DNA of 64,000 nucleotides from a virus (IMGVR_UViG_3300000439_000006); one strand, 5' to 3'. Numbered from the stretch's first letter, positions 1 through 32,085 are shown. The notes: generated by a model not told the origin, from the letters alone. Numbers and translations: made by a program.

Positions 1-3000
1 ATGCTAAAGAAGATGGTATTTGATCAACCTTCTAATGAGATTAATCCTGTAGATGACGTAGATAAGAGTATAGAACTATATCTAAGAAGTTTACAGATGG
101 AAGGTGACAATGCTTTTGATGAATATGGATACACTGTATCTGTAAACTATTCTAACCTTGTACGTGGATTGTTTGCCGATCTTCAAAATACAACAAGTAT
201 GGATGAGATCGTAAAGCTTCTTCAAGAAAAAAGTGAAGACAATCCAGAATATAAAGCCATACTAAAGAAACTAGTTCTTCCAGAAGGCGCTAGTAAAAAA
301 GATATGGACTTTTATATAAAGTTTAGAAACTCTTTTACTAAAGCTTTTATTCCTTTAATGACTGTATCATTAGAAAGCGATGACACTGTAAAGGTGTTTG
401 CTGCAGCCACAGGTAAAAAAGGAACATATGAAAGAGTTATCCAGGCCAACTTTGCTCTTCGCGGTATGCCAGTTGTGGTAGATGCTGAGAAAGGAGAAGT
501 AATAAACCTAGCTCATAGAGATGAAGATGGTTCATGGGTGATTGATAAAACTGATCTAGATAAGATAACTAACTATATAGAAAAAGCTGGTCCTGATGTT
601 ATAGATAGAAAGATGGAGTTTCTTAAAGCCATAGGTTTTCAGTTTAGTCAAAAGACTGAAGAAACCCTAAGACGTGATGCAAAGTTCATGGGTAATAATA
701 AGTATAGTGGTTTTAATGCTTTATATAATCATCTTGTAACACAACTAAGTGACGGAGTAACCATTAGTAATAACCTAATCACGTCTTTAAAAAGAGATTA
801 TAAGGTTAAGAAAGTTTTGAAGAGTAAGGGACAGTCAAACATAATCAGCGATGTAATCGATCGTGAACTTAAAAACAACAGGGATTACAACGTTGATTAT
901 AGTATGGTTAATGCTGCAGGGGATAGACAATACGCTATACAACTACATAACAACTTCACCATCCTTAACAAGTTCTACTCTGATGTTAATGCATATCCCA
1001 CTCTAGAAAGTATACTAGCAGAACCTTCTATGTTCTGGATGGATCCTAGAACAAATCCATCTATACGTAATAGTTCTATACTTAATAGTCTTTTCTACTT
1101 TGATCCATTAGATCCAAACTTTGGATCTCGTAGGTATGTACAAGAAAGTAAGATAGAAGTTCCTAATCCTACAAAACCTGGTGAGACTATTTTAAAAAGT
1201 GTTTACGAATTCTCACCGACTAAAGGTAAACCTGTAACAATCACTATCAACAATACCGGTGGATTAAATACAAAGTTTGAAGGAGAGAAATCTCAAGGAG
1301 CGTCATCTACATCACTAAATGAAGTGGATAAGCTTTTACAAGATATGCATTCTTTCTTCTCATCAACAGCTTATAACAGTATGTTGAGACTGGGAGATAA
1401 GTCTACAGATCTTGGTATATCTGTTTCTTATTACATGGATCCTTTAACAGGAAAACCAGTTGTAAGTTCAGGTAAAACTATCATACCTGTAAATAAACCA
1501 TTAGGAAATATATCTGAGTATAGCACTATATTCAAAAGTGATAGTTTTTTAAAGTATGTAACAAATGCTTTGAAGGACACTGTAGAGATGAAACGTCTTG
1601 CTAAAGAAGAAGATTTTTTACAAAAGTATAAAGTGTCTGGAGCAGCTATATTAAAAAACTGGAGCTACTTTGATAAGATACTTTCTACAGAAACAAAAGG
1701 ATTGATTAAATCTGTAGATGATGTTGATACTTATAAAGAAAACATAAGACAAGATATTTTAAAATATTTTGAAGGAACAAACGGTGTTGTAGAAACGTTC
1801 ATTAGTAAGTTTGCTAAAGCTAAAGAAATAAATAATAACTTCTGGAACAAAAACATATCCTTTGAAAACGCGGCTAGATATTATTTAGCAAACTCATTTG
1901 TCACTGACATTGAACAGATGAAGTTGTTCTTTGGAGATCCTATATTCTTTAAAGACTTTCATAAGAGAGCATCTAAAGATTCAGCCACTGGTATTTTTAC
2001 ATTTATAGATGAGAACATCATTAACAACTTAAATGACCAGTCAACCGAGTATGGAGCTAACACAAACCTTGCGGCTAAAAGACTTATTGAAAGAGTTTAC
2101 CAGGAAAAGTTAAAAACAATAGAGACATCTAAAGCTTCAGAACAAGACAAAGAAAAACTAAGAAAACAATACGCTGCAGAAAGAGATCAAGCTTTGACAA
2201 GACAATCTGTAAGTAAGTCATATCGTTCAGCTGTTTTAAAAGATGTTGACTTCAAAAGTCCTTATTCAACTAAGATAGTTGAGAACGTAAATAAACTTAT
2301 AGGACTTAACTACTTGTCTGAAAAGATGAAAGAGTTATTTAAAAACTCTTTATCAAAAGTTGTAACGGACAAGTATGGTGGTACAGAAGCAGATGGTCAA
2401 GGTAAATGTACTTTTGACTTCTACCGTACCATGAACATATTAACTGGTCAATGGAGCTCAGACCAAGAACGTGTCTATAAAAAGATTGTAGACTACGCTC
2501 ACTTTAATGAACTAGCTGAGAATGAAACAGATCCAACAAAGCGTCTTGAGTATATAAAACAAAGAGATGATGTTGGTTATGATCCTTTAGAAGCCGTATA
2601 TTTTCCTCCTAAGAAGTTTCAATACTCAGGACCGGATAATAACAACTATGGGATGTATGTTCCCATCTTTGATAAGTTCTCTTTACAACCACTAATTCCT
2701 ACAAACATAAAAGGAACCGCTGACGAACATCTTGCTAAAAGAATGGAGTATAACGGTGTGGGTTATGTTAAGTTTGAGAGTGGATCTAAAACAGAAAGCC
2801 CTAAAGCTAAAGATAGTTATTATAGTGAGTATGATGAAAATAATCCTTCTGAAAGAAGTGTACTGGCGTTTAAACCAGAACAAACTTTTAAATCAGAACA
2901 AGAGCTTTTCTTTAATCACTTTAAAGAGCAGCTAGCTATAGATGCTGAGATACATGACCATGCTATATTTGGTTCACAGATAAGAAAGCTGATCATGATG

Positions 3001-6000
3001 AACCTTGATAAAGCTGAGTTTAAAGAACACTATGATAATTATAACAGATATATATTTCATCTTACAGAACTAGAAAAGACATCTCTTTACAATGAGATGG
3101 GTATAACTCGTAATGATGGTAAGCTGCAGATAGGTGATATGAATAAACTGGTTGAGTATTTCTTTAAAGAGATAAACAAAAAGAACCAGGATTCAAACGT
3201 ACGTAAAGCACTTAAGTATGACGAAGCCACTGGTAAGTTTGAAATACCTTTAGATGCCACTATACAAGCTCAGGTATTAGAAGGGATTATTATATCAGCT
3301 ATTAACAATAGAGCGGTACGATATAAAACAAACGGATCTATGTTAACTCAGATGGCTATTACAGGATCTGAAAAAATAGACAAGTTTAACAAAGCTGCGT
3401 CTGACGCAGCTCTTAAAACTTTTGGTAACAAAGAACTTAAGTATTACGATGTTGTAGAAGAAAATGGTAAAACGGTTGTTAAACCTATGCAGGTTAAGAT
3501 AGGACTCACTGGTCAGTGGTTAAACCTTTTGAATTTAGAACATCCAGATGGTTCTAAAATAGATACCATCGAACGTTTAAACGAAGCGTTAAAGAATGAA
3601 GACTGGATGAAACAAAACAATCGAAGTTTACAACTAGTTGCTTATCGTATTCCTACACAGGGTAGAAACTTTACGGATGTTATGCAAGTGGCTGAGTTTC
3701 TTCCAGCGTCAGTGGGTGACGCCATTATTATGCCAAGTGAGTGTGTTATCAAATCAGGATCTGACTTTGATATTGATAAGATGTTTGTTTTCTATCCAAA
3801 CTTGTATAAACAAGGAGGAGCAGCAAAAACATCATATACAGCTGAAGAACTTAAAGATCCTAAAAACTATGAAAGATTAAAAGCTGGTATACAAAACGAA
3901 CTTTACAACACTATGGCGGATATCATTTTACATCCGTCTAACTATGTAGAACTTGTTACACCTTCTGACAACTTTCACATCATGCCTTATGTGGATGAGT
4001 TGTATAAGTTGCTAGGTAAACCTATGAATTCTGATGACAAACATCAGAAGACCGATTTTGCTAACACAGACATTCTAAACCGTAATATAAACATAGATAA
4101 GTTTATAAGTCTTTTAAAAGGTAAATCAGATCTTGGTATCGCAGCGATCGCTAACACGTTTAACGTAATGTTCCAACGTGGAAAGGCTAACGCAAACATT
4201 GATTTCTTTAAAGAAAAAAACATTATATCTTTCTTTAACGTAGAAGGGTCTGTAGAAAAGAGCAACCTTCTTTTTAAATCTATAGATTATTCAAAAATAT
4301 ATGATGAGGATGGCGTATTAAAAAGTGAGTTCTTTAGTGAGTTTATTAACGCCTTCGTTGATGCCGCTAAGGATGACTATGTATTTGCTGTGAACGTTGT
4401 AACAGAGTTGAGCCCAATCATGTTCTATATGAAATACATGGGTATGTCGACAAAAAAGATTTTGGGACTGATGAACCAACCTGGCGTACGTCAATACATA
4501 AAAACATTATCTACATATCAAAACAAGTTTGTTAAAGGTGAAGAAAGTTTTACAGAAGGTGTGAGAGCTTTGGCTTTAAAAGACACTTTAAAACAACTTG
4601 GATATGATTTAGACCCAGATATAAAAAAAGCTGCAGATCTTGGTGATGACGAAGCTAAAAAAGAAGAAAAAAAGTATGGAAAAAGACAAGGTATATATGA
4701 GTATCTTTTAAGTAAGCTTCCTAAATTACATGATACACTATCTAAGTATTTTACCGGTGACGAGTTGTTTAAACAAGTGAAGAATGAAAACATAAATATA
4801 AAAACATTATCACCTAATACTAAGCTCTTACAGATAGCTTATTTGTTGGAACTAGAAAACATGAAGGTTCAATCAAATAGTATATCGGAAGCTCAAAAAG
4901 TATTAAAGTATGATACAAGTCCTTTCTCTAATACATTTGATATATATCAAAGAGAACAACAATACTTAATAGCTACAGCTGGTAATAATGTATTGTCTCC
5001 ATCATCTATAAAACGTATGTACAGTTCTAGTATTATTGCTCCTCTAAATGTATCAGATGATATAAAGAGTATACTGGAAAAACTGTTCCCTGTAAGAAAC
5101 AATGATAGGTTGAATAGATTTCTTTTAGATAAAGGATTACTACTTAAAAACTATATGGCTAACGAGTTTAGAAAGTTTTTAGTTGATGATGATCTTATGA
5201 AGATGGCTCGTATCGCTAAAAATGATATGATGAACTACATCTTACAAAACTACTTTGACAAGTCTGAGTCTGGAAAAGAATACTTTAAAGAAACATTTGG
5301 TACAGATAAGTCCTTAAATGAGTACTTATTAGACCTTGTACAAGGAGATACACTTGTTAAACAATGGGAAGCTATAAGAACTTCCGAAGACTTTGAAGAT
5401 CTGGCCGCTCAGTTTCCTATGGTGAGAAACATCATCTTAGAAAAAGGAGAAAAGAATAGTAGGATAAAAAGCTTTAGAATACTAGAGAATAGTGCAAACC
5501 CTGTTGAGAAAGAACAAATGATTCAACAGTTTGAAGATATAACTAAGCTACAAGAAAGTAAAGACATATCAACGTTCTTTAAAAACCTTGCGTTATATTC
5601 TATATTCCAATCAGGGATGAACACAACAGACTACAGCTATATGTCTATTGTACCTGCATCACTTGTAAACAAACTTTATGGATCAGCTGTAGATGAGTAT
5701 AACAAACTATCTACAGATGAGAAAGAAAATATGTTGAATAAATTTTATAGTAAGTTTCGATTAAACAACCCTGAGATATTTGGTTTAAAAGCTGACGCAT
5801 CTTTAACAAGAGAGATATCTAAAAGAGGAAAGTGGTATTCTGAAGAAACATCTTTAGCGTGGGCTTCTAAATCTGAAAAAGAAAAAGAACAAAAGAAACC
5901 TGAAGTTATTCCTGAAGGACCTATTGCTGCAACTATTCCACAAAACAAAGTGTCAGGAATAGATAGTAATGGTTCTTTAGTAGAAGCTAGTGATGCTGTA

Positions 6001-6567
6001 AAGAAAGTGTTGGGTCCTGCTCCACACTCTATAGATATGATTGAGGCTGGATTAAGAACCAGAACAACAAGATCTGGTAGTGAGATGGAAAAGTATTCTG
6101 TAAAAGTGGGCGATATTATTAAGAACATAGGAACATCTGCTGATGGATCTACTAAAGTGATATACGCTAGAGTGACTGCTATACATCCTAAAAACTCACC
6201 AGGATGGAGAGGTACATGGGAAAAAGAAGGTTGGAGACAAGAGGATGTTAAAGTGACTGATAAGTTCACAAGACCTGGAGCTGCAGCTATAGAGTTTGAA
6301 GTGATTAAACCTTCTGATAAAACAAACCCTGTAAAAGAAGCTGAACCTATAAAAGCTGATAAAAATGTTGTATCTTTGAATAGTAAAACAACATCCGAAC
6401 GTATAGAAGACTTCACTACTAAAAACAATATCGACATAGAAGAATACCAACGTCAACTTGGTATGACAAAAGAAGAGTTGTTTAAAGTTTGGGAGTTTTC
6501 TTATAACGAAGAAAAGATTGGAAATCAAACCATAGAAGAGTTTCTTAGAGACCTGCTGTGTGAGTAA
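1..6567 (+). CDS. Giant virion-associated RNA polymerase-like protein (crAss-like gp66-type); may be 5'-partial because the ATG sits at window position 1
   Basis: 2188-aa uninterrupted ORF. It contains ...IKSGSDFDIDKMFVFYP..., and a DFDID aspartate triad is the catalytic motif I recall for the virion-packaged RNAP of the crAss-like phage phi14:2. Size and AT-rich context fit. Confidence 0.65.
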   Translation: MLKKMVFDQPSNEINPVDDVDKSIELYLRSLQMEGDNAFDEYGYTVSVNYSNLVRGLFADLQNTTSMDEIVKLLQEKSEDNPEYKAILKKLVLPEGASKKDMDFYIKFRNSFTKAFIPLMTVSLESDDTVKVFAAATGKKGTYERVIQANFALRGMPVVVDAEKGEVINLAHRDEDGSWVIDKTDLDKITNYIEKAGPDVIDRKMEFLKAIGFQFSQKTEETLRRDAKFMGNNKYSGFNALYNHLVTQLSDGVTISNNLITSLKRDYKVKKVLKSKGQSNIISDVIDRELKNNRDYNVDYSMVNAAGDRQYAIQLHNNFTILNKFYSDVNAYPTLESILAEPSMFWMDPRTNPSIRNSSILNSLFYFDPLDPNFGSRRYVQESKIEVPNPTKPGETILKSVYEFSPTKGKPVTITINNTGGLNTKFEGEKSQGASSTSLNEVDKLLQDMHSFFSSTAYNSMLRLGDKSTDLGISVSYYMDPLTGKPVVSSGKTIIPVNKPLGNISEYSTIFKSDSFLKYVTNALKDTVEMKRLAKEEDFLQKYKVSGAAILKNWSYFDKILSTETKGLIKSVDDVDTYKENIRQDILKYFEGTNGVVETFISKFAKAKEINNNFWNKNISFENAARYYLANSFVTDIEQMKLFFGDPIFFKDFHKRASKDSATGIFTFIDENIINNLNDQSTEYGANTNLAAKRLIERVYQEKLKTIETSKASEQDKEKLRKQYAAERDQALTRQSVSKSYRSAVLKDVDFKSPYSTKIVENVNKLIGLNYLSEKMKELFKNSLSKVVTDKYGGTEADGQGKCTFDFYRTMNILTGQWSSDQERVYKKIVDYAHFNELAENETDPTKRLEYIKQRDDVGYDPLEAVYFPPKKFQYSGPDNNNYGMYVPIFDKFSLQPLIPTNIKGTADEHLAKRMEYNGVGYVKFESGSKTESPKAKDSYYSEYDENNPSERSVLAFKPEQTFKSEQELFFNHFKEQLAIDAEIHDHAIFGSQIRKLIMMNLDKAEFKEHYDNYNRYIFHLTELEKTSLYNEMGITRNDGKLQIGDMNKLVEYFFKEINKKNQDSNVRKALKYDEATGKFEIPLDATIQAQVLEGIIISAINNRAVRYKTNGSMLTQMAITGSEKIDKFNKAASDAALKTFGNKELKYYDVVEENGKTVVKPMQVKIGLTGQWLNLLNLEHPDGSKIDTIERLNEALKNEDWMKQNNRSLQLVAYRIPTQGRNFTDVMQVAEFLPASVGDAIIMPSECVIKSGSDFDIDKMFVFYPNLYKQGGAAKTSYTAEELKDPKNYERLKAGIQNELYNTMADIILHPSNYVELVTPSDNFHIMPYVDELYKLLGKPMNSDDKHQKTDFANTDILNRNINIDKFISLLKGKSDLGIAAIANTFNVMFQRGKANANIDFFKEKNIISFFNVEGSVEKSNLLFKSIDYSKIYDEDGVLKSEFFSEFINAFVDAAKDDYVFAVNVVTELSPIMFYMKYMGMSTKKILGLMNQPGVRQYIKTLSTYQNKFVKGEESFTEGVRALALKDTLKQLGYDLDPDIKKAADLGDDEAKKEEKKYGKRQGIYEYLLSKLPKLHDTLSKYFTGDELFKQVKNENINIKTLSPNTKLLQIAYLLELENMKVQSNSISEAQKVLKYDTSPFSNTFDIYQREQQYLIATAGNNVLSPSSIKRMYSSSIIAPLNVSDDIKSILEKLFPVRNNDRLNRFLLDKGLLLKNYMANEFRKFLVDDDLMKMARIAKNDMMNYILQNYFDKSESGKEYFKETFGTDKSLNEYLLDLVQGDTLVKQWEAIRTSEDFEDLAAQFPMVRNIILEKGEKNSRIKSFRILENSANPVEKEQMIQQFEDITKLQESKDISTFFKNLALYSIFQSGMNTTDYSYMSIVPASLVNKLYGSAVDEYNKLSTDEKENMLNKFYSKFRLNNPEIFGLKADASLTREISKRGKWYSEETSLAWASKSEKEKEQKKPEVIPEGPIAATIPQNKVSGIDSNGSLVEASDAVKKVLGPAPHSIDMIEAGLRTRTTRSGSEMEKYSVKVGDIIKNIGTSADGSTKVIYARVTAIHPKNSPGWRGTWEKEGWRQEDVKVTDKFTRPGAAAIEFEVIKPSDKTNPVKEAEPIKADKNVVSLNSKTTSERIEDFTTKNNIDIEEYQRQLGMTKEELFKVWEFSYNEEKIGNQTIEEFLRDLLCE

Positions 6568-6579
6568 AACAAAAATAAT

Positions 6580-9500
6580 ATGATTAGTTGTCCTAATAAA
6601 AACACTAAAGAGTGGAAAGAACTTTCAGCTGCTATTGGAGCTAAACAAGCTATGTTAGCTTTTATACGTAATGGTGACCAAATCCCTTCAGAAGCTGAAG
6701 CTAGAGAACTACTAACTAACAAAGGATTGTTAGAAGGGCTTCGTAATATGCCCATGTTATCTCAGGAAACCGTATTCAGTACACTACAAACTAACAATCT
6801 TCTTACAGGATCTCCTATACAGGATAGAGGTAAGACATGGTATCAGTTAGCTGATAGAGAAGATGTGGCTGAAAAGCTAGGTCAGTACACTAATGAGTAT
6901 GGACCTGTGTTAGAATATGACAATGGGTATGTAACAGTTGCTCAAGACTCTATAGATAAATGGAACGAAGTGGCTCAGCTTAAATCATCTAAACAGATGA
7001 ATGCTACAGAACTTGCTGAAGAGTTTCTTGATAGGATTGGTGTTCCTATACAAGAAAGATCTGATGTACTTGCCCGTCATGGATCTAACGGGGTGGCTAA
7101 CATGGCTGAAAAGATGGTTGAGATACAATCTGGTATGAAGGATGTGGCGCTTCCAGAAGAAGCTTTACACTTCTTCTTAGAAATGCTTCCTCAAGATCAT
7201 CCAGCTTTATTAGAAGCTCTTGATAAGATTAGAAACAAATCTGTTTATGGAGAAACATTAGAACAATATAAGAACAATCCAAACTATCAGGTTGATGGTA
7301 AACCAAACTTTACCAAGATAAAAAAAGAAGCTCTGGCTAAAGAGCTGGCTTCACGTATGAAATCTAAAGACCACGGATGGTTATCTACACTTATAGATGG
7401 AATACTAAACTTTATAAAGAGTCTTACGCTTCAAAAAACAGCTATTGAAAAACTAGAAGACTTGTTTTATAGTAAAGACATTAGTCTTTTAAATATGAAC
7501 TTAAACTCTTCTGAGCTTTATAATCAGTTAGCTGATGAAACAAAGAGTTTCTACGAGGCCCAGTCAGCTAACGAAGCACAAAAGAAAACACTTGATGCCA
7601 TATTAGCTCATACCGCAGCTATAAACTTTGATAAAAGTAATCATATCTTAACACATCACGCAACAGTGACAAGTGATGGTATTGTTATGAGATCTGTAAC
7701 ACAGGTTTTAGGATCTGACTTTTATAGTGAGCTAGATCATATGCAAACTGTAGAAACCATTCTCGATAACTTTGAACAATTCTTTCCGGATATTATAGGA
7801 GAAGACTCTCCAAAGATAAAAAACTATATCGATTCTGTAAGCGGTAAAAAAGATGAAGAAGAGCTTATAAAAAAATATAAAGCAAAAGTTTTACTTGACT
7901 ACTTTACAGAGAAGTTGTTAAACGACACTACAAAAGAAACAGTGGAAGATCTGTTAAAAGTTCTTCCTGCAGGTATAGCTAAACAAATAGTACAAGCTAG
8001 TCAAAACAAACAAAAGACATTGTTTGGTACAGCTGTGCACACTATTGTTGAGAGTATCATCATGGATAAAGAAATCGATCTGGATAATCTGGATCCGATA
8101 ATTTATCAGTTTATGGATAAGAAAACTCTTATGGGTCTCATCTATGGTAAAGGATTAAAAGATACTGGTATAAGAGGATTGATACAAGATCTACAGAAAG
8201 ATGGATCTGTATTAATGAGTGAGGTGGAAGTTGGAAACGGAACTGTTGGTGGGGTTATAGATTTAATAGCTATACGTCCTGATGGTACAGCTGAGGTGTA
8301 TGATTTTAAAACAAAGTTTTTAAGAGAACACAAGTTTAACCAAGCTGATATCAAAGCTGAGTTTGAGCAGGTTACAAGAGAACTTTCTAAGTTTGGTATT
8401 AAAAAAGACCCAGCGATATTAGCGGGACTAGCTGATACCAGACGTAGTTTAAATCAGAAGTACACACAACAACTTTCTTTATATAAGAACTTATTGATGG
8501 AGGCCGGAATTCGTGTAGGTGGATTACACATTATTGGTGTACCATATAGAACAAACGCTGAAGGTAAAGTGACAGAAGTAAAAGCTTTTGTTGCCGACCC
8601 TATCTCCTACAACGATAAAATAGGATCTTATCTGTTTAACATAGCAGATAAATCCATGGATGCATCTAAGAAATCTAAGAAGATGACGATTGAAGATGAA
8701 CGTACAAAGCTTCTAGATGACATCAGTAATGACTCCATGAAAGAAAGCTTTACTAAAGCGCTTACAAGATTACAACAACTCTACGAACACTTTAAAAAGA
8801 ACAAGAATATAAACACTATATATGATCTTCTCACTGACAAGACATCCAAAACAAACAGAGTGGACACTCAGAGAGATCTGGTAAGAACTATTCTTAACAA
8901 CTTTGAAAACTTTGATGATGCTACCAAGTTCTTAAATGTACAAAAAGGTTTCCTAGAGCTTATAGATTCATCTGTAGGTATTATACAAACTGTAGCTAAA
9001 GAGTTTGATCGTCTACGTAAACTCAAAGCTGTTGACGAGAAGTCTGCAGTGCAGCGTATCAATGAGTTACAAAAGGTGAATGACTTTGTAACAGGATATG
9101 AGACAATGTTTAAAGAGATGTTAGGTCACTTAGATAGTGCTGACTTAGATAATCCTTTAGTAAAAAGATTGGCCGATATGATTGGTATCACTACTAGTAT
9201 AAAGAGTCAATATGTAGATAGTATATTTGGAGATGTAACAGATATAATGTTAAGTGAGTTTTCTCCAGATGATCTAGAAAACATGAGAAGACTTTATACA
9301 GAAGACATGATAGCTGCTAAACAAAGAGGTGATGAGAAATTAACAAAGATGTATGAAGAAAGAATAAAAAATCTTCCTTCTAAAGAATCAATAGCTGAGG
9401 TGATAAAAGGGAACAGAGGAGATGTTGGTTGGTTCTGGGGTAAGTTTGTTGCCACTATATCAAACCCTGATATAATTTTGTCGAGTGTTGCCAAACGTCT

Positions 9501-12500
9501 TAAAGCTGTATTAGATAGAGTGAGACTTATGAACAAAGAGTTCAAAGATAACTTAAGTGTTGAGTTCGATAAACGAGCTAAACTTTATGGTAGAGGACTT
9601 GATATCAAAAAGATAAACGAAAGCCTTGTATACGAAGCTAAAGAGTTTAATGCATCTACAGGTAAAGAGATGAATGTGTCATACTTTAAGAGCGAATACC
9701 ATGAAAAACTTTACGCTGATTATAATAAGCTTAAGTATAATCTAAAACAAGCCGAGGAAGAAAAGGATGTAACCAAAATCAAAGCGGCTAAACTAGCTAT
9801 AAAGAACTTTGAACAGAAATACTTTGAGAGTAACTTTACCAATGAATACTTTAAACTAACAAGTGTCTTAGATAAAGAGGTAACTCATGCCGGTAATAAA
9901 ACAACTATACGTGAACTTATCGCTGATATCTATGATAAGATAAATGCTGTACAAAGACGCGGTGGTTACAGTGATGAAGATATAAGCTCAGGTAATATGA
10001 CTGATGAAGATCTTCAAGAACGTATGGATCTGTTTAGACAAATCTCATCTTTAAAAGAAAGTAATGATGAAAATGGTCTTCCTAAAACAGGAGAGGCTTT
10101 AAAGATAGCTGAGGCTTTAAAGGAATACGATAAGAACAAAGAACTTCTTTATGACTATGTAGAACTTACTGACTTGTTTAATCATAAACAACAAGAGATG
10201 AAGTTAAAATATGGTGAAGGAAGCGAAGAATACGAAGCCTGGATGGCCAAGAACACTCGTCTTGCTATCAGTGATGAGTATTACACTCGTAGACAACAAA
10301 TCTTAGATCGTATAAAAGAGATTAATAATAACGATGAGGCTTCTGTTAAAATGGATGAGCTTTATAGAGAGCTTAGTGTTTTAGCTAAACCTTATAAAGA
10401 TGCTGATGGATATATCAGAGGACAAAACATGCCGGCTGATGTAGCTCAAAAGATAAAACGTATTGAGGCTGAGATAGTTACACAACGTCAAAACCTGGAT
10501 AACTTCATCATGAACGGTAACACAGCTGCTGAAAAAGAAGAAATCAACCAGATAAACTTTTTAAAGTATAATGATAAAGCTTACGATCGTGAAAGATTAA
10601 ATGAGCTTATAAGAGAAGGTAAAAACCGTTTACAAGATAGAATAGATAACGATCCTGATTATGCTGAGAAGTATGATGAGATGACAGATCTTTTAAATGA
10701 GCTTTACAAGATGGGTAAAACAGAAATAACTGAGTATTATTACGAAGAGCTTGATAAACAAAGAAGAAACTTTGCTGAAGCAAACAACGTAACATACGAA
10801 GAGTTTATGAATAACCCAGAGATGTATGAAGACTTTGAAAAAAGTGAATGGTTTATAAACAACCACAACATCATTGATAAGATTGTATACGAAGATCCTG
10901 AAACTGGTGAGACACTTGGTTCTAAGATTAGAAATCCTATATGGAGTTGGAAACGTAATATGCCTATAGACAAGTATATCACTAGAAAACCAGCCAATCA
11001 TTTCTATCAAAGAACTCTTAAAGAATCTTACACAGATGCTAATGGTAAAGAAGTGTTACTTAAAAACACTGACAATAAAGATGTTCAAGGTAGATTCAAA
11101 CCAAAGAACGCTGAACAGTATAAAAAAGAATATGGTAAAGAACATCCATATCTAAACAAAGACTTCACTAGTTTAAGAGATAAATACACTAATGGAACAG
11201 CTTCTGAAAAAGAAAAAGTGGACTATGAAAACCTATTGTTTATTCATAAGTCAATGTTAGATGCGCAAGAAGGTATAGAAGTTTCTCAAAGACTTGGTCT
11301 TGCTGTTCCTTTCTTAGAAAAACATGGAAGAGAAAGAACAATTGAAAGTCGCGGTAACAACTTTATAGAAAAAGGAAACAGTATATGGCAAGGTATTAAG
11401 CGTTCGGTTACGTCTACAGAACAGGATGTGGACCAGGAAGGAATACATTCTTCTAAAACCACAGAGTATTCACACTTAGCCACTATGGATAACAATGAAT
11501 ACAAGTTTGTTCCTGTAAGATATAGTACAAAAGGAGAAGCTGATAACGCCAGTTATGACGTATGGGGAGGAGTATTAAACTATGTAGCTGCTACCAATCG
11601 TAAAAAAGAACTTGACCAGGAGATGGCTATGTTAAATGGCTTGGAAAAAATGTTAGGTGACGAACGTAATCAACCTAAAAGTGAAGCAAATAACCTAATA
11701 GCTAATAAAATCTTTAAGAAATATCTTCCAGATATGACTCAAAAGATTAATAGCGGAACCAACACTCGTTTAGAAGTATTAAAAAGCTTTGTAAACAGTG
11801 TTATGTTTAACGAAGAATCCTTCAAAGGATATGAGGTGTTGGGTGTTAACTCTCAGAAAGTGGTAAATAAGATGATGAGAATGATTAGTTTTACCACTCT
11901 TGGGTTTGCTCCATTCAACTGGATGACAAACTTACTATCAGGTCATGTACAAAACATTGTAGAAGCTGTGGGAGGAAACACTATAACCCTTAATGGATAT
12001 AAAGATGCAAAGAACATGATATATATGGGATCTTCTAAATATGGAACTCCTATAAAAGATATGATGAATGACTATTCTAAAGTGGGAAACAAATCATTCT
12101 GGGGACAAATCATGGAATACTTTGATCCTATACAGGGAGAGGTTGATGATGAGTATGGACATAAAACAAGCTTTAACAAGTTTGCCAATATATTACATGC
12201 TGGTGTATACGCTGGTAAGATGTGGGGTGAGTGGGAAATCCAGATGAGTACCTTCATAGCTTATATGCTAAACAACAAAGTGTCTGATGGTAAAGTGGTA
12301 GACAGAGAATCATTTATAACCAAACACATGGGAGATATATCTGATATGTCTATAAAAGAAATCTCTGCTAAAAAGCTTGAAGCTATAAAAGCTTTTGATG
12401 CGCTGGAACATAATCTGTTAGATCTTTTTGAAATGAAAGATGGTAAGCTGGTTGTAAAAGCTCAGTTTAAAGATGTATTTGAACTAGGATCTAAAGACTT

Positions 12501-13290
12501 TAGTAATGTAGTGGCTAAGCTTCACTCTATGCAAAAGAGAATCAACGGATCATATAATAAGTTTGATAAAACATATATTGAGAAAACATCTCTTGGTAAG
12601 ATGGCTACGTTCTTTAGAAAGCACGTTATTCCATTGGGTGTTAATAGACTAGGTACATTAAGAGAAAACTACGAGAGTATGAGTACAGAAGAAGGATTTT
12701 ATATCACCTTCTGTAAAACTATGGGTAAAGATCTGATGCATTTCCGTCTACAAAATATTATAAACTGGGAAAACTATTCAGATAGAGAAAAGAGAGCTAT
12801 CAAAAGAACCCTAACAGATGTAGGTATTATTCTTACATGTATGGCTGCATACACACTTATAGGTGGGTATAACGAGAATGATAAGGATAAGATGAAGAAA
12901 CTAAGAAGAACATCTTGGGCCAATCAGGCTATGGTGTTTGAGTTGTTAAAACTTAAATCTGAAACAGAACAGTTTATACCGGCTCCTGATATGGGATTGA
13001 ACGAGTTGAAAAGACTTTATTCTAACCCATCGCTTATTCTGTCAGAAACAACTCAGATGTTCTACATGACTAGTTTGTTAGCTAAACAAGCTGCACACGC
13101 TATTCCTGGATCTAACTTCTTTGAGAACGATCTTTATTATCAAAAAGATACAGACCAAGGTGGTCTTGGAGATAAAGGAGATTCTAAACTACTACACGAA
13201 CTTGTCAGATCATTTAGTGGATATAGTGGTAAAACATTCCATCCAGCTGACGCGGTCAAATCATTTGAATATGGACAAAGAATCAAGTAA
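6580..13290 (+). CDS. Giant structural or ejected virion protein, function unknown (crAss-like large virion protein block)
   Basis: 2236-aa ORF starting 13 nt after the first giant ORF. No recognisable catalytic motif. Coding periodicity is strong, and only tiny spurious antisense ORFs lie inside it. Confidence 0.6.
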   Translation: MISCPNKNTKEWKELSAAIGAKQAMLAFIRNGDQIPSEAEARELLTNKGLLEGLRNMPMLSQETVFSTLQTNNLLTGSPIQDRGKTWYQLADREDVAEKLGQYTNEYGPVLEYDNGYVTVAQDSIDKWNEVAQLKSSKQMNATELAEEFLDRIGVPIQERSDVLARHGSNGVANMAEKMVEIQSGMKDVALPEEALHFFLEMLPQDHPALLEALDKIRNKSVYGETLEQYKNNPNYQVDGKPNFTKIKKEALAKELASRMKSKDHGWLSTLIDGILNFIKSLTLQKTAIEKLEDLFYSKDISLLNMNLNSSELYNQLADETKSFYEAQSANEAQKKTLDAILAHTAAINFDKSNHILTHHATVTSDGIVMRSVTQVLGSDFYSELDHMQTVETILDNFEQFFPDIIGEDSPKIKNYIDSVSGKKDEEELIKKYKAKVLLDYFTEKLLNDTTKETVEDLLKVLPAGIAKQIVQASQNKQKTLFGTAVHTIVESIIMDKEIDLDNLDPIIYQFMDKKTLMGLIYGKGLKDTGIRGLIQDLQKDGSVLMSEVEVGNGTVGGVIDLIAIRPDGTAEVYDFKTKFLREHKFNQADIKAEFEQVTRELSKFGIKKDPAILAGLADTRRSLNQKYTQQLSLYKNLLMEAGIRVGGLHIIGVPYRTNAEGKVTEVKAFVADPISYNDKIGSYLFNIADKSMDASKKSKKMTIEDERTKLLDDISNDSMKESFTKALTRLQQLYEHFKKNKNINTIYDLLTDKTSKTNRVDTQRDLVRTILNNFENFDDATKFLNVQKGFLELIDSSVGIIQTVAKEFDRLRKLKAVDEKSAVQRINELQKVNDFVTGYETMFKEMLGHLDSADLDNPLVKRLADMIGITTSIKSQYVDSIFGDVTDIMLSEFSPDDLENMRRLYTEDMIAAKQRGDEKLTKMYEERIKNLPSKESIAEVIKGNRGDVGWFWGKFVATISNPDIILSSVAKRLKAVLDRVRLMNKEFKDNLSVEFDKRAKLYGRGLDIKKINESLVYEAKEFNASTGKEMNVSYFKSEYHEKLYADYNKLKYNLKQAEEEKDVTKIKAAKLAIKNFEQKYFESNFTNEYFKLTSVLDKEVTHAGNKTTIRELIADIYDKINAVQRRGGYSDEDISSGNMTDEDLQERMDLFRQISSLKESNDENGLPKTGEALKIAEALKEYDKNKELLYDYVELTDLFNHKQQEMKLKYGEGSEEYEAWMAKNTRLAISDEYYTRRQQILDRIKEINNNDEASVKMDELYRELSVLAKPYKDADGYIRGQNMPADVAQKIKRIEAEIVTQRQNLDNFIMNGNTAAEKEEINQINFLKYNDKAYDRERLNELIREGKNRLQDRIDNDPDYAEKYDEMTDLLNELYKMGKTEITEYYYEELDKQRRNFAEANNVTYEEFMNNPEMYEDFEKSEWFINNHNIIDKIVYEDPETGETLGSKIRNPIWSWKRNMPIDKYITRKPANHFYQRTLKESYTDANGKEVLLKNTDNKDVQGRFKPKNAEQYKKEYGKEHPYLNKDFTSLRDKYTNGTASEKEKVDYENLLFIHKSMLDAQEGIEVSQRLGLAVPFLEKHGRERTIESRGNNFIEKGNSIWQGIKRSVTSTEQDVDQEGIHSSKTTEYSHLATMDNNEYKFVPVRYSTKGEADNASYDVWGGVLNYVAATNRKKELDQEMAMLNGLEKMLGDERNQPKSEANNLIANKIFKKYLPDMTQKINSGTNTRLEVLKSFVNSVMFNEESFKGYEVLGVNSQKVVNKMMRMISFTTLGFAPFNWMTNLLSGHVQNIVEAVGGNTITLNGYKDAKNMIYMGSSKYGTPIKDMMNDYSKVGNKSFWGQIMEYFDPIQGEVDDEYGHKTSFNKFANILHAGVYAGKMWGEWEIQMSTFIAYMLNNKVSDGKVVDRESFITKHMGDISDMSIKEISAKKLEAIKAFDALEHNLLDLFEMKDGKLVVKAQFKDVFELGSKDFSNVVAKLHSMQKRINGSYNKFDKTYIEKTSLGKMATFFRKHVIPLGVNRLGTLRENYESMSTEEGFYITFCKTMGKDLMHFRLQNIINWENYSDREKRAIKRTLTDVGIILTCMAAYTLIGGYNENDKDKMKKLRRTSWANQAMVFELLKLKSETEQFIPAPDMGLNELKRLYSNPSLILSETTQMFYMTSLLAKQAAHAIPGSNFFENDLYYQKDTDQGGLGDKGDSKLLHELVRSFSGYSGKTFHPADAVKSFEYGQRIK

Positions 13291-13296
13291 AAATAA

Positions 13297-13326
13297 AGGG
13301 AGTCACAAAATGACTCCCTTTTCATT
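13297..13326. terminator. Bidirectional intrinsic terminator at the plus-to-minus strand switch
   Basis: GGGAGTCA-caaaa-TGACTCCC hairpin with an A-run upstream and TTTTCATT downstream. It sits between convergent genes. Confidence 0.6.
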
Positions 13327-13771
13327 AGTCTGTCGTAAAAGGATGTTTCATAAGAAAACAATCCTGTGGTTGATCCATGTGTTTTTTAAAGCCGTTAATA
13401 TAGCTTTGTATATTAGCCGCTCCGACAGGGTTGTGGCTATGTACAGAACATGCCTTTAACATCACTTTGTTAGGCTGACAATATTCTTCTATAAGCCAAC
13501 GAGCACACTCGAGCCCGGTCTTTTCTTTGTACTCCTCATACTTGGGAAACTGATGACCTATGAGTCCCACCTGTGTGGCATAGTCATCCATATGTTCATC
13601 TGCAAGATCGTGGTCAAAAGATATAAGATCTGGTATCCCATTCTTCTTAATCCAATCTACAAACTGATCATAGTTTCTTACCACCTGCCATTCTTCATAG
13701 CCAGGTATAGTTGTTGTAGGCGTTCTATTATCGTCCAAGTAAAGGGCTTTTTTAAGCTTTGTTGCTTTCAT
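13325..13771 (-). CDS. Hypothetical protein
   Basis: 148-aa ORF. A DHD-containing acidic segment (ISFDHDLADEH) could be metal-binding. Confidence 0.5.
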   Translation of the reverse strand: MKATKLKKALYLDDNRTPTTTIPGYEEWQVVRNYDQFVDWIKKNGIPDLISFDHDLADEHMDDYATQVGLIGHQFPKYEEYKEKTGLECARWLIEEYCQPNKVMLKACSVHSHNPVGAANIQSYINGFKKHMDQPQDCFLMKHPFTTD

Positions 13772-14240
13772 ATTGGTTTTTTAATGTTTCTATTTCAGCT
13801 TGTAACTTGTCTATTGTTTCTTCATGTCTGGTAACAGCTATCATAAGATTTTCGTTAACATTTACAAGTGTTTCTATAGCGCTAGTGTAACCATCTAAAG
13901 GTAATGTTATATGTGTTTCACAAATAGGAACACCAGCTACACTTATTTCTAAATGAGCGGTCATACTATTATAGAACTGTCCATTTAATGCGAGCTTACT
14001 AACATATGTTCCTCTAGCTGCGGATAGATGTACTGTATGACCAATCTTCATATTATCTTGTAACCAAGCTATGGTCTCATCATGTAAGAAAAATCTAGGA
14101 CTTGGCTTAGCTAGAGGATTAGAATCCTTTTTTTCTTTTGGTTTTTCTGTTGTTGGTACACCATTATGCCAACTAGGTGTTAACTCTATATGTTCATAAC
14201 CTAGTGGATCTAATGGTAATGTTTCCCTACTCATGTTCAA
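13752..14240 (-). CDS. Hypothetical protein
   Basis: 162-aa ORF whose 3' end overlaps the start of the neighbouring minus-strand gene, consistent with an operon. Confidence 0.5.
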   Translation of the reverse strand: MNMSRETLPLDPLGYEHIELTPSWHNGVPTTEKPKEKKDSNPLAKPSPRFFLHDETIAWLQDNMKIGHTVHLSAARGTYVSKLALNGQFYNSMTAHLEISVAGVPICETHITLPLDGYTSAIETLVNVNENLMIAVTRHEETIDKLQAEIETLKNQYESNKA

Positions 14241-14769
14241 AGTTTTTATGCATTAACGATTCTTGTACTCCAGTTTGGTTATGATACTTGGATCCAGCTT
14301 TTTGGTCATAGCTTTCTTCCACTTCACCTTCCACTCTGGCAAACTCTATCTGACATATCTTCATGTTAGGATATACTATGACAGGTCTTGTAGCCACTAG
14401 TTCTAATACTAAACTACCTTCAAAGCCTGGGTCAATAAACCCTGCAGTGACATGTATAAAGAGTCCTAGTCTACCAAGAGAAGACTTACCTTCTACCTTG
14501 GCTCTAATGTTACCCTTAACACCTATTCTTTCATTCACAGCATACAGATACACTTCACCTGGTAGTAAAACATAACCTTCTTCAGGAATAGTTAGTTCTT
14601 CTACATCATTAGGTCTACGTGGATCTAATACACCTGGTTTATAAATTTTAAACTGTGGAGCTAGAGTTAAATCTACACTCACTGGGTTTATATACTTTTC
14701 ATCAAAGGGGGATATAATTATGTTCCCAGCTTCGATCTCTTTCTTAATTGTCTTGTCTGATAATATCAT
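14227..14769 (-). CDS. dcd: dCTP deaminase / dUTPase superfamily enzyme (Dcd-like)
   Basis: N-terminal MILSDKTIKKEI...ISPF and a GFIDPGFEGSLVLEL motif typical of Dcd/dUTPase beta-barrel enzymes. 180 aa. Confidence 0.7.
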   Translation of the reverse strand: MILSDKTIKKEIEAGNIIISPFDEKYINPVSVDLTLAPQFKIYKPGVLDPRRPNDVEELTIPEEGYVLLPGEVYLYAVNERIGVKGNIRAKVEGKSSLGRLGLFIHVTAGFIDPGFEGSLVLELVATRPVIVYPNMKICQIEFARVEGEVEESYDQKAGSKYHNQTGVQESLMHKNFEHE

Positions 14770-16568: not shown

Positions 16569-17266
16569 AATCCTTCTTGTTTTAAAATATTCTCCACAGT
16601 GAAGGCGAGACTGGTGAGATCGGATCCATTAAGTATCTTGTACTTAAAGTTCCAATTGTCCAGTCCCACTTCACTTGGATGATTATTGATTGGTTTAACA
16701 CCAGGACGATCTATACGAATAATAATTCCACCCTTAGATTCTATAGCTTCAGCTTCATTAGGAAACCTAGTATCAGTGATAATCCAGTTTGGACAATCCC
16801 AACCATTTGGAGCTAAATCCGCTGGGACACAATGATAATCCGCCATGAGTGCGTTTACCCATACGTTATCATGTAACCCCATTCTCATAGCATCAGTTCC
16901 CAGTTCCTGCAGAAACTGTCTCACTGTCATGGGTCGGATGTCTTCTACATGAAGTGTTTCTTTAGGAAAGAATCTTTTCTCTAACATCACCTTATCCCAT
17001 TGACTAGGAAGGTTTGTCTTCTTAAAGTCCTGATCCTCAAACATATGTTCGGGTATTCCTGTAAGAATAGAAGCTATTTGTTTTAGCTTTCCAGCAAACT
17101 TCTTTATCTCCCATCCAGATTGTTCTTCTAACCACCAATTATGATCTAAAGGATTTTTTAGAATCTCTTCTATAGAGATATCTTTATCTTTAGATAAGTG
17201 ATGTTGTATAATCTTTCCTACAGTGTCTTTTCCTACACCTCCATAAGAGTTTAATCCAATAATCAT
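16559..17266 (-). CDS. Deoxynucleoside monophosphate kinase-like P-loop kinase
   Basis: N-terminal MIIGLNSYGGVGKDTVGKII is a P-loop of the GxxxxGKD(T) type, resembling T4 gp1 dNMP kinase. 235 aa. Confidence 0.55.
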   Translation of the reverse strand: MIIGLNSYGGVGKDTVGKIIQHHLSKDKDISIEEILKNPLDHNWWLEEQSGWEIKKFAGKLKQIASILTGIPEHMFEDQDFKKTNLPSQWDKVMLEKRFFPKETLHVEDIRPMTVRQFLQELGTDAMRMGLHDNVWVNALMADYHCVPADLAPNGWDCPNWIITDTRFPNEAEAIESKGGIIIRIDRPGVKPINNHPSEVGLDNWNFKYKILNGSDLTSLAFTVENILKQEGLWP

Positions 17267-17278
17267 GTTGTATGTTTT

Positions 17279-18346
17279 TTATTTATCAAGTCTTATTCCA
17301 ACCATAACAGGGAACCTAGGTACACCTGTTTCTGAGTATTCAAAGAATCTAAGCTCAGCTGTCTTACCAATGTAAGCTTGTTTGTTAGCCAAAAACTCTT
17401 CACGATCTTTGTGAGAGAACTTAAGTCCAGCTCTAAGCTCATCGTTTGGAGCGCCTGGCCAATGAAACACTGGAACTCCCCATGTAGGTCTAGCTGATGC
17501 CGGTTCGATGTCTTTGATTGGCAAAGATATATCTTTGAAGTCTTTGTATTTCAAAAGATTTTCACTTCTTCCGTTAAGCTTATATCCTTCTTCTCCCCAT
17601 CTCACCATGGTTCCTTCATATCCTGTAGCGATATTAATACCATGATAGCTTTTAAGATCTTCTTCAGATGTAAGAAATACTGTTTGAACCTTCACCAAGT
17701 GTGGGATGTTCTCAAAAATACTTGTTTCATATCTGTTCTTAAAGCTCCATGTAGGTTTAACAACATCATAGATGTTAAACTTCACCTTCTCTGTATCAGC
17801 TCCACGATTCTTTTTAATAAGTCTCATGTTTTCCTGGAAAGATTCTCCATGAGCGTAGAGCTCTCCATCAAGAGTGTGTCCTGCAGGGATCTGTTGTAAG
17901 GCGCTGATGATGTGTGGACATGTAGTTATGTTTCCACCATCTCTACTGGTGAGTGTAGCGTTAGGACCAGTTGTTCCTAAAGCACGCATACCATCTAGTT
18001 TTGGTTGACCATATACATCATCTGTTCCCCATTTAATCTTTTTACCTAACAGCTTATAGTCTTTAGCCAACATAGGAAGTATCACCTGAATGTTCATAGC
18101 TTCATCAACTGTTTCAAAATAGTCTTCTTTTAGCTTTTCAAACACTTTACTCTTCGCTTCAAACTCAGCTTGTTGCTCTGGAGTGGTTTCATTTATCTTT
18201 CCTACGTTCTTTGAAGTACACTTCTTTCTAGCTTCTACTAAAGCTCCATCTAATAATCCTGATTTTTGCACAAGTTCATCACCTTCTACAGTGATATGTA
18301 ACACTCTTATTTTACCCTTTGAATCTTTTTTATATAATACGCTCAT
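17279..18346 (-). CDS. lig: ATP-dependent DNA ligase
   Basis: KLDGMRA matches adenylation motif I (KxDGxR). At 355 aa it is in the size range of the small phage ligases. Confidence 0.7.
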   Translation of the reverse strand: MSVLYKKDSKGKIRVLHITVEGDELVQKSGLLDGALVEARKKCTSKNVGKINETTPEQQAEFEAKSKVFEKLKEDYFETVDEAMNIQVILPMLAKDYKLLGKKIKWGTDDVYGQPKLDGMRALGTTGPNATLTSRDGGNITTCPHIISALQQIPAGHTLDGELYAHGESFQENMRLIKKNRGADTEKVKFNIYDVVKPTWSFKNRYETSIFENIPHLVKVQTVFLTSEEDLKSYHGINIATGYEGTMVRWGEEGYKLNGRSENLLKYKDFKDISLPIKDIEPASARPTWGVPVFHWPGAPNDELRAGLKFSHKDREEFLANKQAYIGKTAELRFFEYSETGVPRFPVMVGIRLDK

Positions 18347-18710
18347 TGTTATTCATTTTATCTATTACTAAATCTTTTGGAAAAGGAAGAGAATCCTTTT
18401 TCCAGTCTTCCACTACTTTTTCCGTGGTCCTCACAACGAGTCCTCGGGAACGTTTTTTTCCGTCCATATAATCTTTGCTATATCTCTCACTACTAAAGCT
18501 GTCCCATTTGGTTAGATGATAACCATGACAAACTCTACATGAATAATAGCGACATTGTTCCACCTTTCCTTTTCTACGATTATACCGCTTACCGGTCATA
18601 TAGTCGTAATAACGAGGAGTGGATTTTAATTGTGTTATCGCGGTTAACGCGTCACCAGGCGTAGGGTATCTAGTTTTCCCTGTTGTCTGGCACTTCGGGT
18701 ATTTTACCAT
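18330..18710 (-). CDS. Hypothetical Cys/His-rich protein
   Basis: 126 aa with CRYYSCRVCHGYH. Confidence 0.45.
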   Translation of the reverse strand: MVKYPKCQTTGKTRYPTPGDALTAITQLKSTPRYYDYMTGKRYNRRKGKVEQCRYYSCRVCHGYHLTKWDSFSSERYSKDYMDGKKRSRGLVVRTTEKVVEDWKKDSLPFPKDLVIDKMNNNERII

Positions 18711-19044
18711 ACTTCTTTTCTATATGATCTCTAGTCATTTCTATGACATATTCTACATCCTCACCCGGAAGACGGAACATCTCTTCGGTGATGAGCATTA
18801 GATAAACAAGGTCTGGTCTATCAAGATGCTTCTTAACCTCCATTACAGATGCTGTATCCGGCATAAGATCACATACATGATTGATAGCCGACCTAGCAGC
18901 TTGTAATGCTTTAGTTAAAGCATACTTTTGCTTTTGACTAGTGAGTCCTTTAGCCGCTTCTATCCTCAACTCTATACACTTAAGATGTTCTAATACACAT
19001 GCGAATAGATTAGAGACACTGTTTTCACTTAATTCTTCGGCCAT
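18670..19044 (-). CDS. Hypothetical protein
   Basis: 124-aa ORF. Confidence 0.45.
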   Translation of the reverse strand: MAEELSENSVSNLFACVLEHLKCIELRIEAAKGLTSQKQKYALTKALQAARSAINHVCDLMPDTASVMEVKKHLDRPDLVYLMLITEEMFRLPGEDVEYVIEMTRDHIEKKYGKIPEVPDNREN

Positions 19045-19071
19045 AAAAATAAAAAGGGGACCGAAGTCCCC
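19041..19071 (-). terminator. Intrinsic terminator (minus strand)
   Basis: On the minus strand, a GGGGACTTCGGTCCCC hairpin is followed by TTTTTATTTTT. Confidence 0.55.
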
Positions 19072-19077
19072 ATGTGT

Positions 19078-19890: not shown

Positions 19891-19909
19891 GTTGTTTGTT
19901 TTTTTGTTT

Positions 19910-31390: not shown

Positions 31391-32065
31391 TTGTACTCAA
31401 AAAACCGTATATTATATTGTAGATTAAATACAAAAGCTTTATATATGTCTAGAAACTTCTATGCCCAACAAGATCACCTAGGTTTTCCAATACCAGGTAC
31501 AATGATGTTTACAACGGCTCCTTTGCCTATTCCGAAGAATACATTCGCTATTCTTCCGCAAACATACACTCCAGGTGTATACCAACAACAACGTGTTCAC
31601 CCAGGTGGAATTCGTTATTTTGTTCGTAAACTAGCTAATGGAGACATTATTCCGAATACATTGTTCTTAAGTACAACACAACCTGCTGGATTGTGGTGGG
31701 AACTTAAAGTGTTTTACAATGCTCCAGGTATCCATCCTATAGGTAATATTACTACAGGTTTAGACTACACCGGTGCAGGTCCTTCGTCAACAGTTACGCA
31801 GGGTATTTCTTTCTACCATATAGCTCCGGGTGAGATTGTTACTGTTTCTCATACTAATACCAACTTTGAAATATCTACTGATGGTGTAACTTGGACTACA
31901 GGAAGTGTGACATATACTGTTGGAACTACAGATCCAAGTGTTGCTAATCTTTATATAAGATTAAAAGCTGGTTTATCAGTTGCTTCTTATACAGAAACAA
32001 TAACTTTAAGCTCTCATACAGTTGTTACTCCAGTAACTTTCTCAGTGACTGGAACAGTATCTTAA
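31391..32065 (+). CDS. Hypothetical protein, possibly structural or fibre-like
   Basis: 224 aa, rich in T/G/V, on the plus strand. Confidence 0.45.
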   Translation: MYSKNRILYCRLNTKALYMSRNFYAQQDHLGFPIPGTMMFTTAPLPIPKNTFAILPQTYTPGVYQQQRVHPGGIRYFVRKLANGDIIPNTLFLSTTQPAGLWWELKVFYNAPGIHPIGNITTGLDYTGAGPSSTVTQGISFYHIAPGEIVTVSHTNTNFEISTDGVTWTTGSVTYTVGTTDPSVANLYIRLKAGLSVASYTETITLSSHTVVTPVTFSVTGTVS

Positions 32066-32085
32066 TCCTTTAAAACCTCCTTCTG

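Follow-up and report, generated by a model that had tools for sequence, protein, structure and literature searches.

The best-characterized relatives of the locus analyzed here come from crAss-like phages that package their own RNA polymerase (RNAP). In phi14:2, the virion RNAP gp66 is known to be present in virions, to be ejected and to carry out rifampicin-resistant early transcription (gp66 papers; Drobysheva et al.), and the aspartates of its DFDID motif are essential, as determined by mutagenesis (gp66 paper). phi14:2 gp65 has been detected in virions by mass spectrometry, and the RNAP-associated proteins gp47, gp49 and gp50 of PhicrAss001 are likewise known virion components. The storage and ejection of this RNAP-associated cargo of ~700-800 kDa is still called an open question in crassviruses, and the relationships of the three RNAP-associated proteins are listed as unresolved (2026 paper). 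In this study we analyzed a 64,000-nucleotide stretch of viral DNA (IMGVR_UViG_3300000439_000006; the window), with a particular emphasis on two giant open reading frames, ORF1 and ORF2, which fill its positions 1-13290. As a whole, this region is very probably best explained as the final gene pair in the "transcription gene block" of an uncultured crAss-like phage, encoding a gp66-type RNAP and its gp65-like partner, a reading built on homology, motif conservation, domain folds and synteny.

ORF1 occupies positions 1-6567 of the plus strand (2188 residues), and ORF2 starts 12 nucleotides further on (6580-13290, 2236 residues), so the two adjacent giant ORFs of a preliminary description, made from the sequence alone, were confirmed. 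The peptide SGSDFDIDKMF, placed there near residue 1255, contains DFDID at residues 1255-1259 (nucleotides 3763-3777; residues 1470-1474 of the full-length protein). The same description had read ORF1 as a crAss-like virion RNAP and proposed alignment to phi14:2 gp66 and conservation of DFDID in orthologs as checks, both of which bear it out. When all PDB sequences were searched with phmmer, gp66 (6VR4) was the one significant match to ORF1 (E=1.6e-21), with the ORF1 segment "iksgsdfdidkmfvfypn" opposite "tktgsdfdidkmyvmlpn" and DFDID falling on gp66 residues 1361-1365. A family profile built from 69 database homologs of ORF1 matched gp66 at E=5e-190, collinear across gp66 residues 145-1795, a span that takes in connector, bridge helix and trigger loop. 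All 69 of these homologs keep the motif G-x-D-[FY]-D-[IVY]-D-K. Scanning all 1.84 billion cluster representatives with HMMER returned 2214 relatives at E<=1e-3; 140 new representatives of clusters defined at 50% identity were retrieved for a motif check, and 139 of them keep it, the one exception being a 392-residue fragment. In tblastn, ORF1 matched Crassvirales or unclassified uncultured-phage records, with 22-27% identity among the 30 matches listed, and some of these matches are annotated as "RNAP catalytic subunit". These comparisons support the assignment of ORF1 as a homolog of phi14:2 gp66, the virion RNAP, whose catalytic DFDID coincides with that of ORF1.

That DFDID might be a chance pentapeptide within a non-enzymatic structural or cargo protein finds some encouragement in the lack of any Pfam model match for ORF1, and nevertheless retains almost no probability. 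The alignment to the solved enzyme 6VR4 is significant and residue-exact, the gp66-collinear profile includes conserved bridge-helix and trigger-loop equivalents, and the motif is invariant over hundreds of relatives (69/69 and 139/140) whose remaining sequence has diverged to ~25% identity, which together refute the chance reading. The parts of ORF1, read as a gp66-type RNAP, are as follows.

1-6567, plus strand: ORF1, the 3' 91% of a 2403-residue crAss-like virion RNAP gene of the gp66 family, with the first 215 codons upstream of the window.
2224-2913, plus strand: region just before the connector, first double-psi beta-barrel region (ORF1 residues ~742-971, gp66 ~917-1094; boundaries estimated from the gp66 paper and the profile alignment).
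2914-3345, plus strand: connector-domain equivalent (residues 972-1115, gp66 1095-1238; profile mapping).
3346-3810, plus strand: second barrel region with the catalytic loop (residues ~1116-1270; alignment to gp66).
3763-3777, plus strand: DFDID Mg-binding aspartate triad (residues 1255-1259; gp66 alignment and homolog conservation).
4078-4185, plus strand: bridge-helix equivalent (residues 1360-1395, gp66 1529-1559; profile mapping).
4318-4434, plus strand: trigger-loop equivalent (residues 1440-1478, gp66 1598-1636; invariant FINAFVD.A.DDYVF).
5935-6312, plus strand: ASCH-like (PUA-fold) module of the variable C-terminal tail (residues 1979-2104; predicted fold and invariant residues).
6418-6564, plus strand: conserved RNAP C-terminal peptide (...IGNQTIEEFLRDLLCE), whose terminal Cys2187 lies at nucleotides 6559-6561.

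Within the first barrel region, DGQGK.TFDFYR and PPKKFQY.G...FDKFSL.PLIP are invariant. The suspicion that ORF1 is cut by the window edge was well founded: P0001, 100% identical to ORF1, measures 2403 residues, so that ORF1 is short by 215. On contig Ga0214170_1000074, which differs from the window by one base in 14,778, the gene (L002:10001-17212) begins 645 nucleotides ahead of the equivalent of window base 1 (L002:10646), and the ATG at the window start is therefore internal, being codon 216; it falls in a stretch weakly aligned with the gp66 cleft-blocking domain. Upstream on this contig lies a 2871-residue gp67-like gene (L002:1386-10001), whose stop overlaps the RNAP start, and ahead of it a further gene of at least 1034 residues. 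Besides the DFDID loop and the collinear core, ORF1 shares with gp66 a similar size (2403 vs 2180 residues), its position between gp67-like and gp65-like genes, and a cysteine at both termini. It differs in sequence, tblastn giving only 25.7% identity to phi14:2 in the best local match, and in its C-terminal ~260 residues, where it carries the ASCH-like module and the conserved tail peptide and where relatives carry AlkB-like or ART-PolyVal domains.

In the AlphaFold model the tail module of ORF1 adopts an ASCH-type PUA-like beta-barrel, and its invariant residues include G-x-RTRTTR, TW.KEGW and AIEF. The Pfam ASCH model matched none of 15 module sequences at E<=1, and a PDB sequence search with the ORF1 tail module gave nothing significant (best E=0.34). 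Compared with ASCH proteins such as the Escherichia coli ac4C amidohydrolase YqfB and the Zymomonas ASCH ribonuclease, the module differs in the lack of a Pfam ASCH match and in its fusion to a polymerase. It also has an arginine, in G-L-R-T-R-T-T-R, at the place of the lysine in the G-R-K-T-I-T-I-R of YqfB. The RNAP tails (window 5773-6564 and homologs P0002-P0045) are hypervariable module arrays of 112-1151 residues, in which ASCH-like, AlkB-like 2OG-Fe(II) oxygenase, ART-PolyVal and other modules without Pfam identity occur and which are closed by a conserved peptide of ~40 residues with a final cysteine. ASCH-like modules were found in 17 relatives, AlkB-like modules in 8/16 and ART-PolyVal in 2/16 of those scanned. 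With such tails, the injected polymerase resembles a vehicle for variable effector domains. In one distant relative (L008:9001-20941), the RNAP gene is split into ORFs of 3014 and 991 residues with an 80-nucleotide overlap, and DFDID lies 137 residues before the end of the first; this split may reflect a frameshift or other recoding event.

The second giant protein is related to gp65. Its residues ~1605-2185 match crAss-like "putative RNA-polymerase subunit" proteins and the phi14:2 g065 product, an "RNA polymerase associated protein"; in tblastn, ORF2 gave E=2e-17 against cr85_1 and 6e-4 against phi14:2, and pairwise blastp aligned its residues 1620-2145 with gp65 832-1362 at E=1.8e-10. Its features are as follows.

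6580-13290, plus strand: ORF2, a gp65-like RNAP-associated virion protein by homology to the gp65 C-terminal region (2236 residues).
6589-6591, plus strand: invariant N-terminal cysteine Cys4 (MISCPNK), from homolog conservation.
6847-7479, plus strand: zincin-like domain (residues ~90-300, limits approximate), with invariant E193-E194-x-x-H197-x-x-x-E201.
7987-8589, plus strand: RecB/Cas4-like PD-(D/E)xK nuclease domain (residues ~470-670), with GTAVH487, D561, D575-x-K577 and Q631xxxY635.
11392-13134, plus strand: conserved gp65-like C-terminal region (residues ~1605-2185), common to Crassvirales "RNAP subunit" proteins.

The domain at residues ~90-300 belongs to the zincin-like fold in the broad sense, and its site, EExxHxxxE, is HExxHxxxE with the first histidine swapped for glutamate. 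The nuclease domain shows the catalytic motifs of the RecB family together with a restriction-endonuclease-like fold, although the Pfam model PF12705 gave no match to ORF2 itself at E<=0.1. The four cysteines of the Cas4 iron-sulfur cluster are missing, as ORF2 has cysteines only at 4, 2045 and 2087. Searching PDB sequences with ORF2, whether by the sequence alone or by a family profile, returned nothing significant. Between the nuclease domain and the C-terminal region lie ~900 highly charged residues. For some crAss-like phages, a large protein of the transcription block has been reported to contain a PDDEXK domain (Yutin et al., 2021). The domain in ORF2 differs from the RecB/AddB/Cas4/Exo5/MGME1 nucleases in lacking Cas4-type iron-sulfur cysteines and in being embedded in a 2236-residue protein assigned to the virion. 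The view of the preliminary description that ORF2 is likely another ejected or cargo protein is supported by its gp65-like C-terminal region and the presence of gp65 in virions; its statement that ORF2 has no recognizable motif is wrong, given the PD-(D/E)xK nuclease and EExxHxxxE.

Compared with phi14:2 gp65 and the PhicrAss001-type "RNAP subunit" proteins (1349-1421 residues), with which it shares homology over their C-terminal ~550 residues, ORF2 likewise lies directly downstream of the RNAP gene and has an N-terminal cysteine, single and at position 3-5 in the gp65 type. It differs in being ~800 residues longer, in a paralogous EExxHxxxE domain in place of HExxH, and in the added PD-(D/E)xK nuclease. 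The relatives of ORF2 carry ART-PolyVal, His-phosphatase or PDDEXK domains, of which the first two are swapped in at the N-terminus. Several unrelated enzymatic modules in one polypeptide, varying between relatives, are what characterizes polyvalent injected proteins (Iyer et al., 2017), and the combination of a giant polymerase with protease-like and other enzymatic modules is common to these proteins and the present pair. ORF2 might on these grounds be mainly an injected effector, its nuclease and protease-like domains acting on host DNA or RNA or on defence proteins, with the label "RNAP subunit" being positional only. The complete RecB-like catalytic motif set, the conserved zincin-like site, the exchange of N-terminal ART-PolyVal and histidine-phosphatase domains as in polyvalent injected proteins, and the lack of any polymerase motif in Pfam and PDB sequence searches of ORF2 speak for such a role. 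We nevertheless consider it rather unlikely, as it is the C-terminal region, of unknown function, that is conserved in all Crassvirales, and not the enzymatic domains, and the gene is always next to or fused with that of the RNAP; moreover, the effector and RNAP-subunit readings are compatible with each other. A hydropathy scan revealed no transmembrane helices in ORF1 and no convincing membrane segments in ORF2, and since a single weak hydrophobic segment (residues 2078-2096, inside the C-terminal region) was all that it detected, a channel-forming role is without support.

Two features of PhiCrAssBcn18, a PhicrAss001-like phage, deserve mention beside these assignments. Its 2412-residue protein (L004 9546-16784) contains D-F-D-V-D, and the adjacent 1349-residue protein (16787-20836) is gp65-like and matches the ORF2 C-terminus. 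This assignment looks at odds with an earlier remark in which gp49 (154.5 kDa) was called the homologue of the crystallised polymerase (Bayfield et al., 2023).

Both giant proteins are strikingly poor in cysteine, with 6 cysteines in 4424 residues vs 1.46% in the other ORFs of the window (binomial P ~6e-21); in the three homolog families (gp67-like, RNAP and gp65-like) cysteine content is 0.04-0.11%. The few cysteines present lie at particular positions, as listed below for three phages.

phi14:2: gp67 (1797 residues), 1797 only; gp66 (2180 residues), 3 and 2179 only; gp65, 3 only.
Window phage: upstream 2871-residue protein, 2870 only; full-length ORF1 (2403 residues), 4, 1018, 1463 and 2402; ORF2, 4, 2045 and 2087.
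PhiCrAssBcn18, with the gp67-like gene on the opposite strand: gp67-like protein (2341 residues), 2339 only; RNAP (2412 residues), 5, 1334 and 2404; gp65-like protein (1349 residues), 5 only.

The same arrangement recurs within each family. In the RNAP family, a cysteine lies within the last 10 residues in 194/199 full-length-like proteins, and the separate RNAPs (catalytic motif at residues 1200-2600) have one in the first 8 residues in 146 of 159 cases, mostly at position 3-5; where a gp67-like part is fused in front, an N-terminal cysteine is found in only 3/37. The gp65-like proteins have an N-terminal cysteine in 117/120 and a C-terminal cysteine in 0/120, the three exceptions looking mis-called or incomplete at the start. 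In the gp67-like proteins, none of 68 has an N-terminal cysteine and 52 of 68 have one in the last 10 residues, often the sole cysteine in ~2800 residues. Five fused gp67+RNAP proteins (4490-4981 residues) contain a single cysteine each, at the C-terminus, and two more have one extra internal cysteine; in the fused proteins of cr118_1 and cr50_1, the mapped internal junction is free of cysteine for hundreds of residues. P0069, an RNAP without a C-terminal cysteine, is a split gene whose continuation ends ...NPLDCE, and the next protein starts MKSC; the exception is therefore only apparent, and a co-variation test with P0069 is uninformative. The rule holds in phi14:2, PhicrAss001-like phages, crAss002, cr118_1 and cr50_1, spans hundreds of proteins from three or more Crassvirales families, and seems to apply throughout the order. 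In the crAss-like phage literature examined, we found no mention of terminal cysteines.

Since gp67-like proteins carry the cysteine at the C-terminus, RNAPs at both ends and gp65-like proteins at the N-terminus, these residues mark the ends that face the next polypeptide. The idea that they are relics of polyprotein cleavage sites or of translational coupling was rejected, as they are absent at fused junctions and present where the gp67-like gene lies on the opposite strand. We tentatively propose that the giant crassvirus cargo proteins may be joined end to end in the virion via single terminal cysteines, most simply as disulfides. The pattern suggests links between the gp67-like C-terminus and the RNAP N-terminus and between the RNAP C-terminus and the gp65-like N-terminus, which in the window suggests ORF1 Cys2187 and ORF2 Cys4 as the predicted pair. 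Disulfides with a structural role are known from the tail of PhicrAss001. Because the chemistry of the linkage is inferred, we give this proposal somewhat less than an even chance.

The genomic surroundings agree with the assignment of both ORFs. The gene order gp67-like, RNAP, gp65-like, converging on a replication module, is that of phi14:2 g067-g066-g065 and of crAss-like phages generally, and supports the earlier placement of the window in a crAss-like phage. The convergent minus-strand block encodes dCTP deaminase, dNMP kinase, DNA ligase, PolB, a PDDEXK exonuclease, DnaG primase, DnaB helicase, a MoxR-type AAA+ ATPase and an SNF2-like helicase. The ORF1/ORF2 region has 33-36% GC and positive GC and AT skew; from ~13.3 kb the skews are reversed and the minus strand carries most of the genes. 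Between the two blocks lies the following element, likely a bidirectional terminator.

13295-13321, no strand assigned: 12-bp GC-containing hairpin, bordered on either side by T-runs, in the gap separating ORF2 from the convergent replication block on the minus strand.

A sigma-70-type promoter scan found fewer sites than in shuffled controls. The ORF1-ORF2 spacer (window 6568-6582, with AACAAAAATAAT ahead of the ATG) is A-rich and without a Shine-Dalgarno sequence. Such spacers are typical of Bacteroidota-type translation initiation, and this one is therefore a weak hint about the host.

Several observations weigh against reading the region as a gp66-type RNAP gene and its gp65-like partner in a crAss-like phage. 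Deposited phages show only 21-27% identity, which makes for a long distance over which to transfer function, and neither Pfam nor PHROGs returned anything for ORF1 or ORF2 themselves (Pfam on ORF2 at E<=0.1). The two double-psi beta-barrels of ORF1 are predicted from alignment to the solved 6VR4 structure, not from fold comparison, and of five AlphaFold runs only one gave a confident ASCH model. For the ORF2 model, Foldseek alone gave no match at E<=1e-3. A search for HExxH in ORF1 and ORF2 found none, so that the canonical HExxH of gp65 orthologs is absent from ORF2, and it is the upstream 2871-residue protein that carries a canonical zincin motif (HELIH at residue 1903) and matches gp65 residues 208-338. 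The protease-like domain of the gp65 orthologs therefore sits in another giant protein in this phage, and domains have evidently moved between the three giant proteins. Finally, the structural genes that define Crassvirales, namely major capsid protein, portal and TerL, lie outside the window and the further loci used, of which the transcription and replication blocks were examined.

Some of these observations would also fit an element outside Crassvirales proper, that is, a neighbouring environmental lineage that shares the giant transcription block and not the crAss structural signature genes. Besides the low identity to every deposited crAss-like phage and the lack of a PHROGs match, a megablast search of GenBank phages with the 13.3 kb gave no match and no near-identical genome; the source contig (128.7 kb) is larger than most crAss genomes, and environmental phages beyond the crAss-like assemblage occur in the TerL tree (Yutin, 2021). 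We nevertheless regard a position outside the order as distinctly improbable, as the element fits the crAss layout in its gene order, its convergent replication module and its DnaG/DnaB/SNF2-like/AAA+/PDDEXK set, all named tblastn matches are Crassvirales, and the terminal-cysteine rule is common to Steigviridae, Intestiviridae and Suoliviridae. No confirmed relative emerged when IMG/VR was scanned for peptide patterns of the ORF1 core.

Other genes of the window were recorded in passing. The first genes past ORF2 on the opposite strand encode a cREC_REC (cyclic-phosphate processing receiver) domain protein (window 13325-13771, minus strand) and the dCTP deaminase (14227-14769, minus strand). 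Within the replication module, a nicotinamide/nicotinate phosphoribosyltransferase of nicotinamide adenine dinucleotide (NAD) salvage, with NAPRTase and NAMPT_N domains, is encoded at 42295-44004 (minus strand). The MoxR-type AAA+ ATPase is encoded at 36629-37570 and an SPFH/Band-7 protein at 53126-53989, both on the minus strand, as are the genes for tRNA-Ile(GAT) (52108-52180) and tRNA-Tyr(GTA) (59374-59448). A small island of plus-strand ORFs (31391-34840) lies inside the long minus-strand block.

Packaging, ejection, early-gene transcription and enzymatic activities are inferred from phi14:2 and PhicrAss001. ORF1 most probably encodes a single-chain two-barrel DNA-dependent RNA polymerase of the gp66 family, which by homology would be made late, packaged in the capsid and ejected together with the DNA into the host. 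Its DFDID loop is predicted to bind Mg2+, and the polymerase would transcribe early genes without the host polymerase, here most likely those of the convergent minus-strand replication module. Beyond the polymerase core, ORF1 carries the ASCH-like module and then the short conserved tail ending in a cysteine. ORF2, with the N- to C-terminal order of cysteine, zincin-like EExxHxxxE, RecB-like PD-(D/E)xK nuclease, charged stretch and Crassvirales-conserved C-terminal region, is most likely co-packaged and co-ejected cargo that may assist the polymerase or act on host nucleic acids. Among polymerases beyond the crAss-like phages, Neurospora QDE-1 and other two-barrel enzymes are alike in their single-chain two-barrel architecture, connector, bridge helix and trigger loop (gp66 structure paper); unlike these, ORF1 has Ile and not Gly at the fourth motif position, and no direct sequence similarity was detected between them (phmmer against PDB: only 6VR4). 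The virion RNAP of coliphage N4 is likewise giant, capsid-packaged and ejected with accessory proteins, whereas it is T7-like, single-subunit and unrelated in fold.

ORF1 and ORF2 are a divergent environmental copy of the already known crAss-like packaged RNAP and its partner. They add a divergent environmental lineage to the crAss-like virion RNAP family, with a best local match to a deposited phage that is ~27% identical, and they illustrate the modularity of this family, in which the polymerase core is fixed and ASCH-like, AlkB-like, ADP-ribosyltransferase, nuclease and protease-like modules are shuffled among three giant proteins. Two features go beyond the routine, namely the tails with their modular effectors and, more than these, the terminal-cysteine rule. 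If the proposed linkage is true, the two- or three-gene block would behave like the single polyprotein of other members, and the cargo would pass through the tail as one quasi-linear chain, which reduction in the host cytoplasm would then take apart. The rule thus offers a concrete, testable hypothesis for the storage and ejection of crassvirus cargo.

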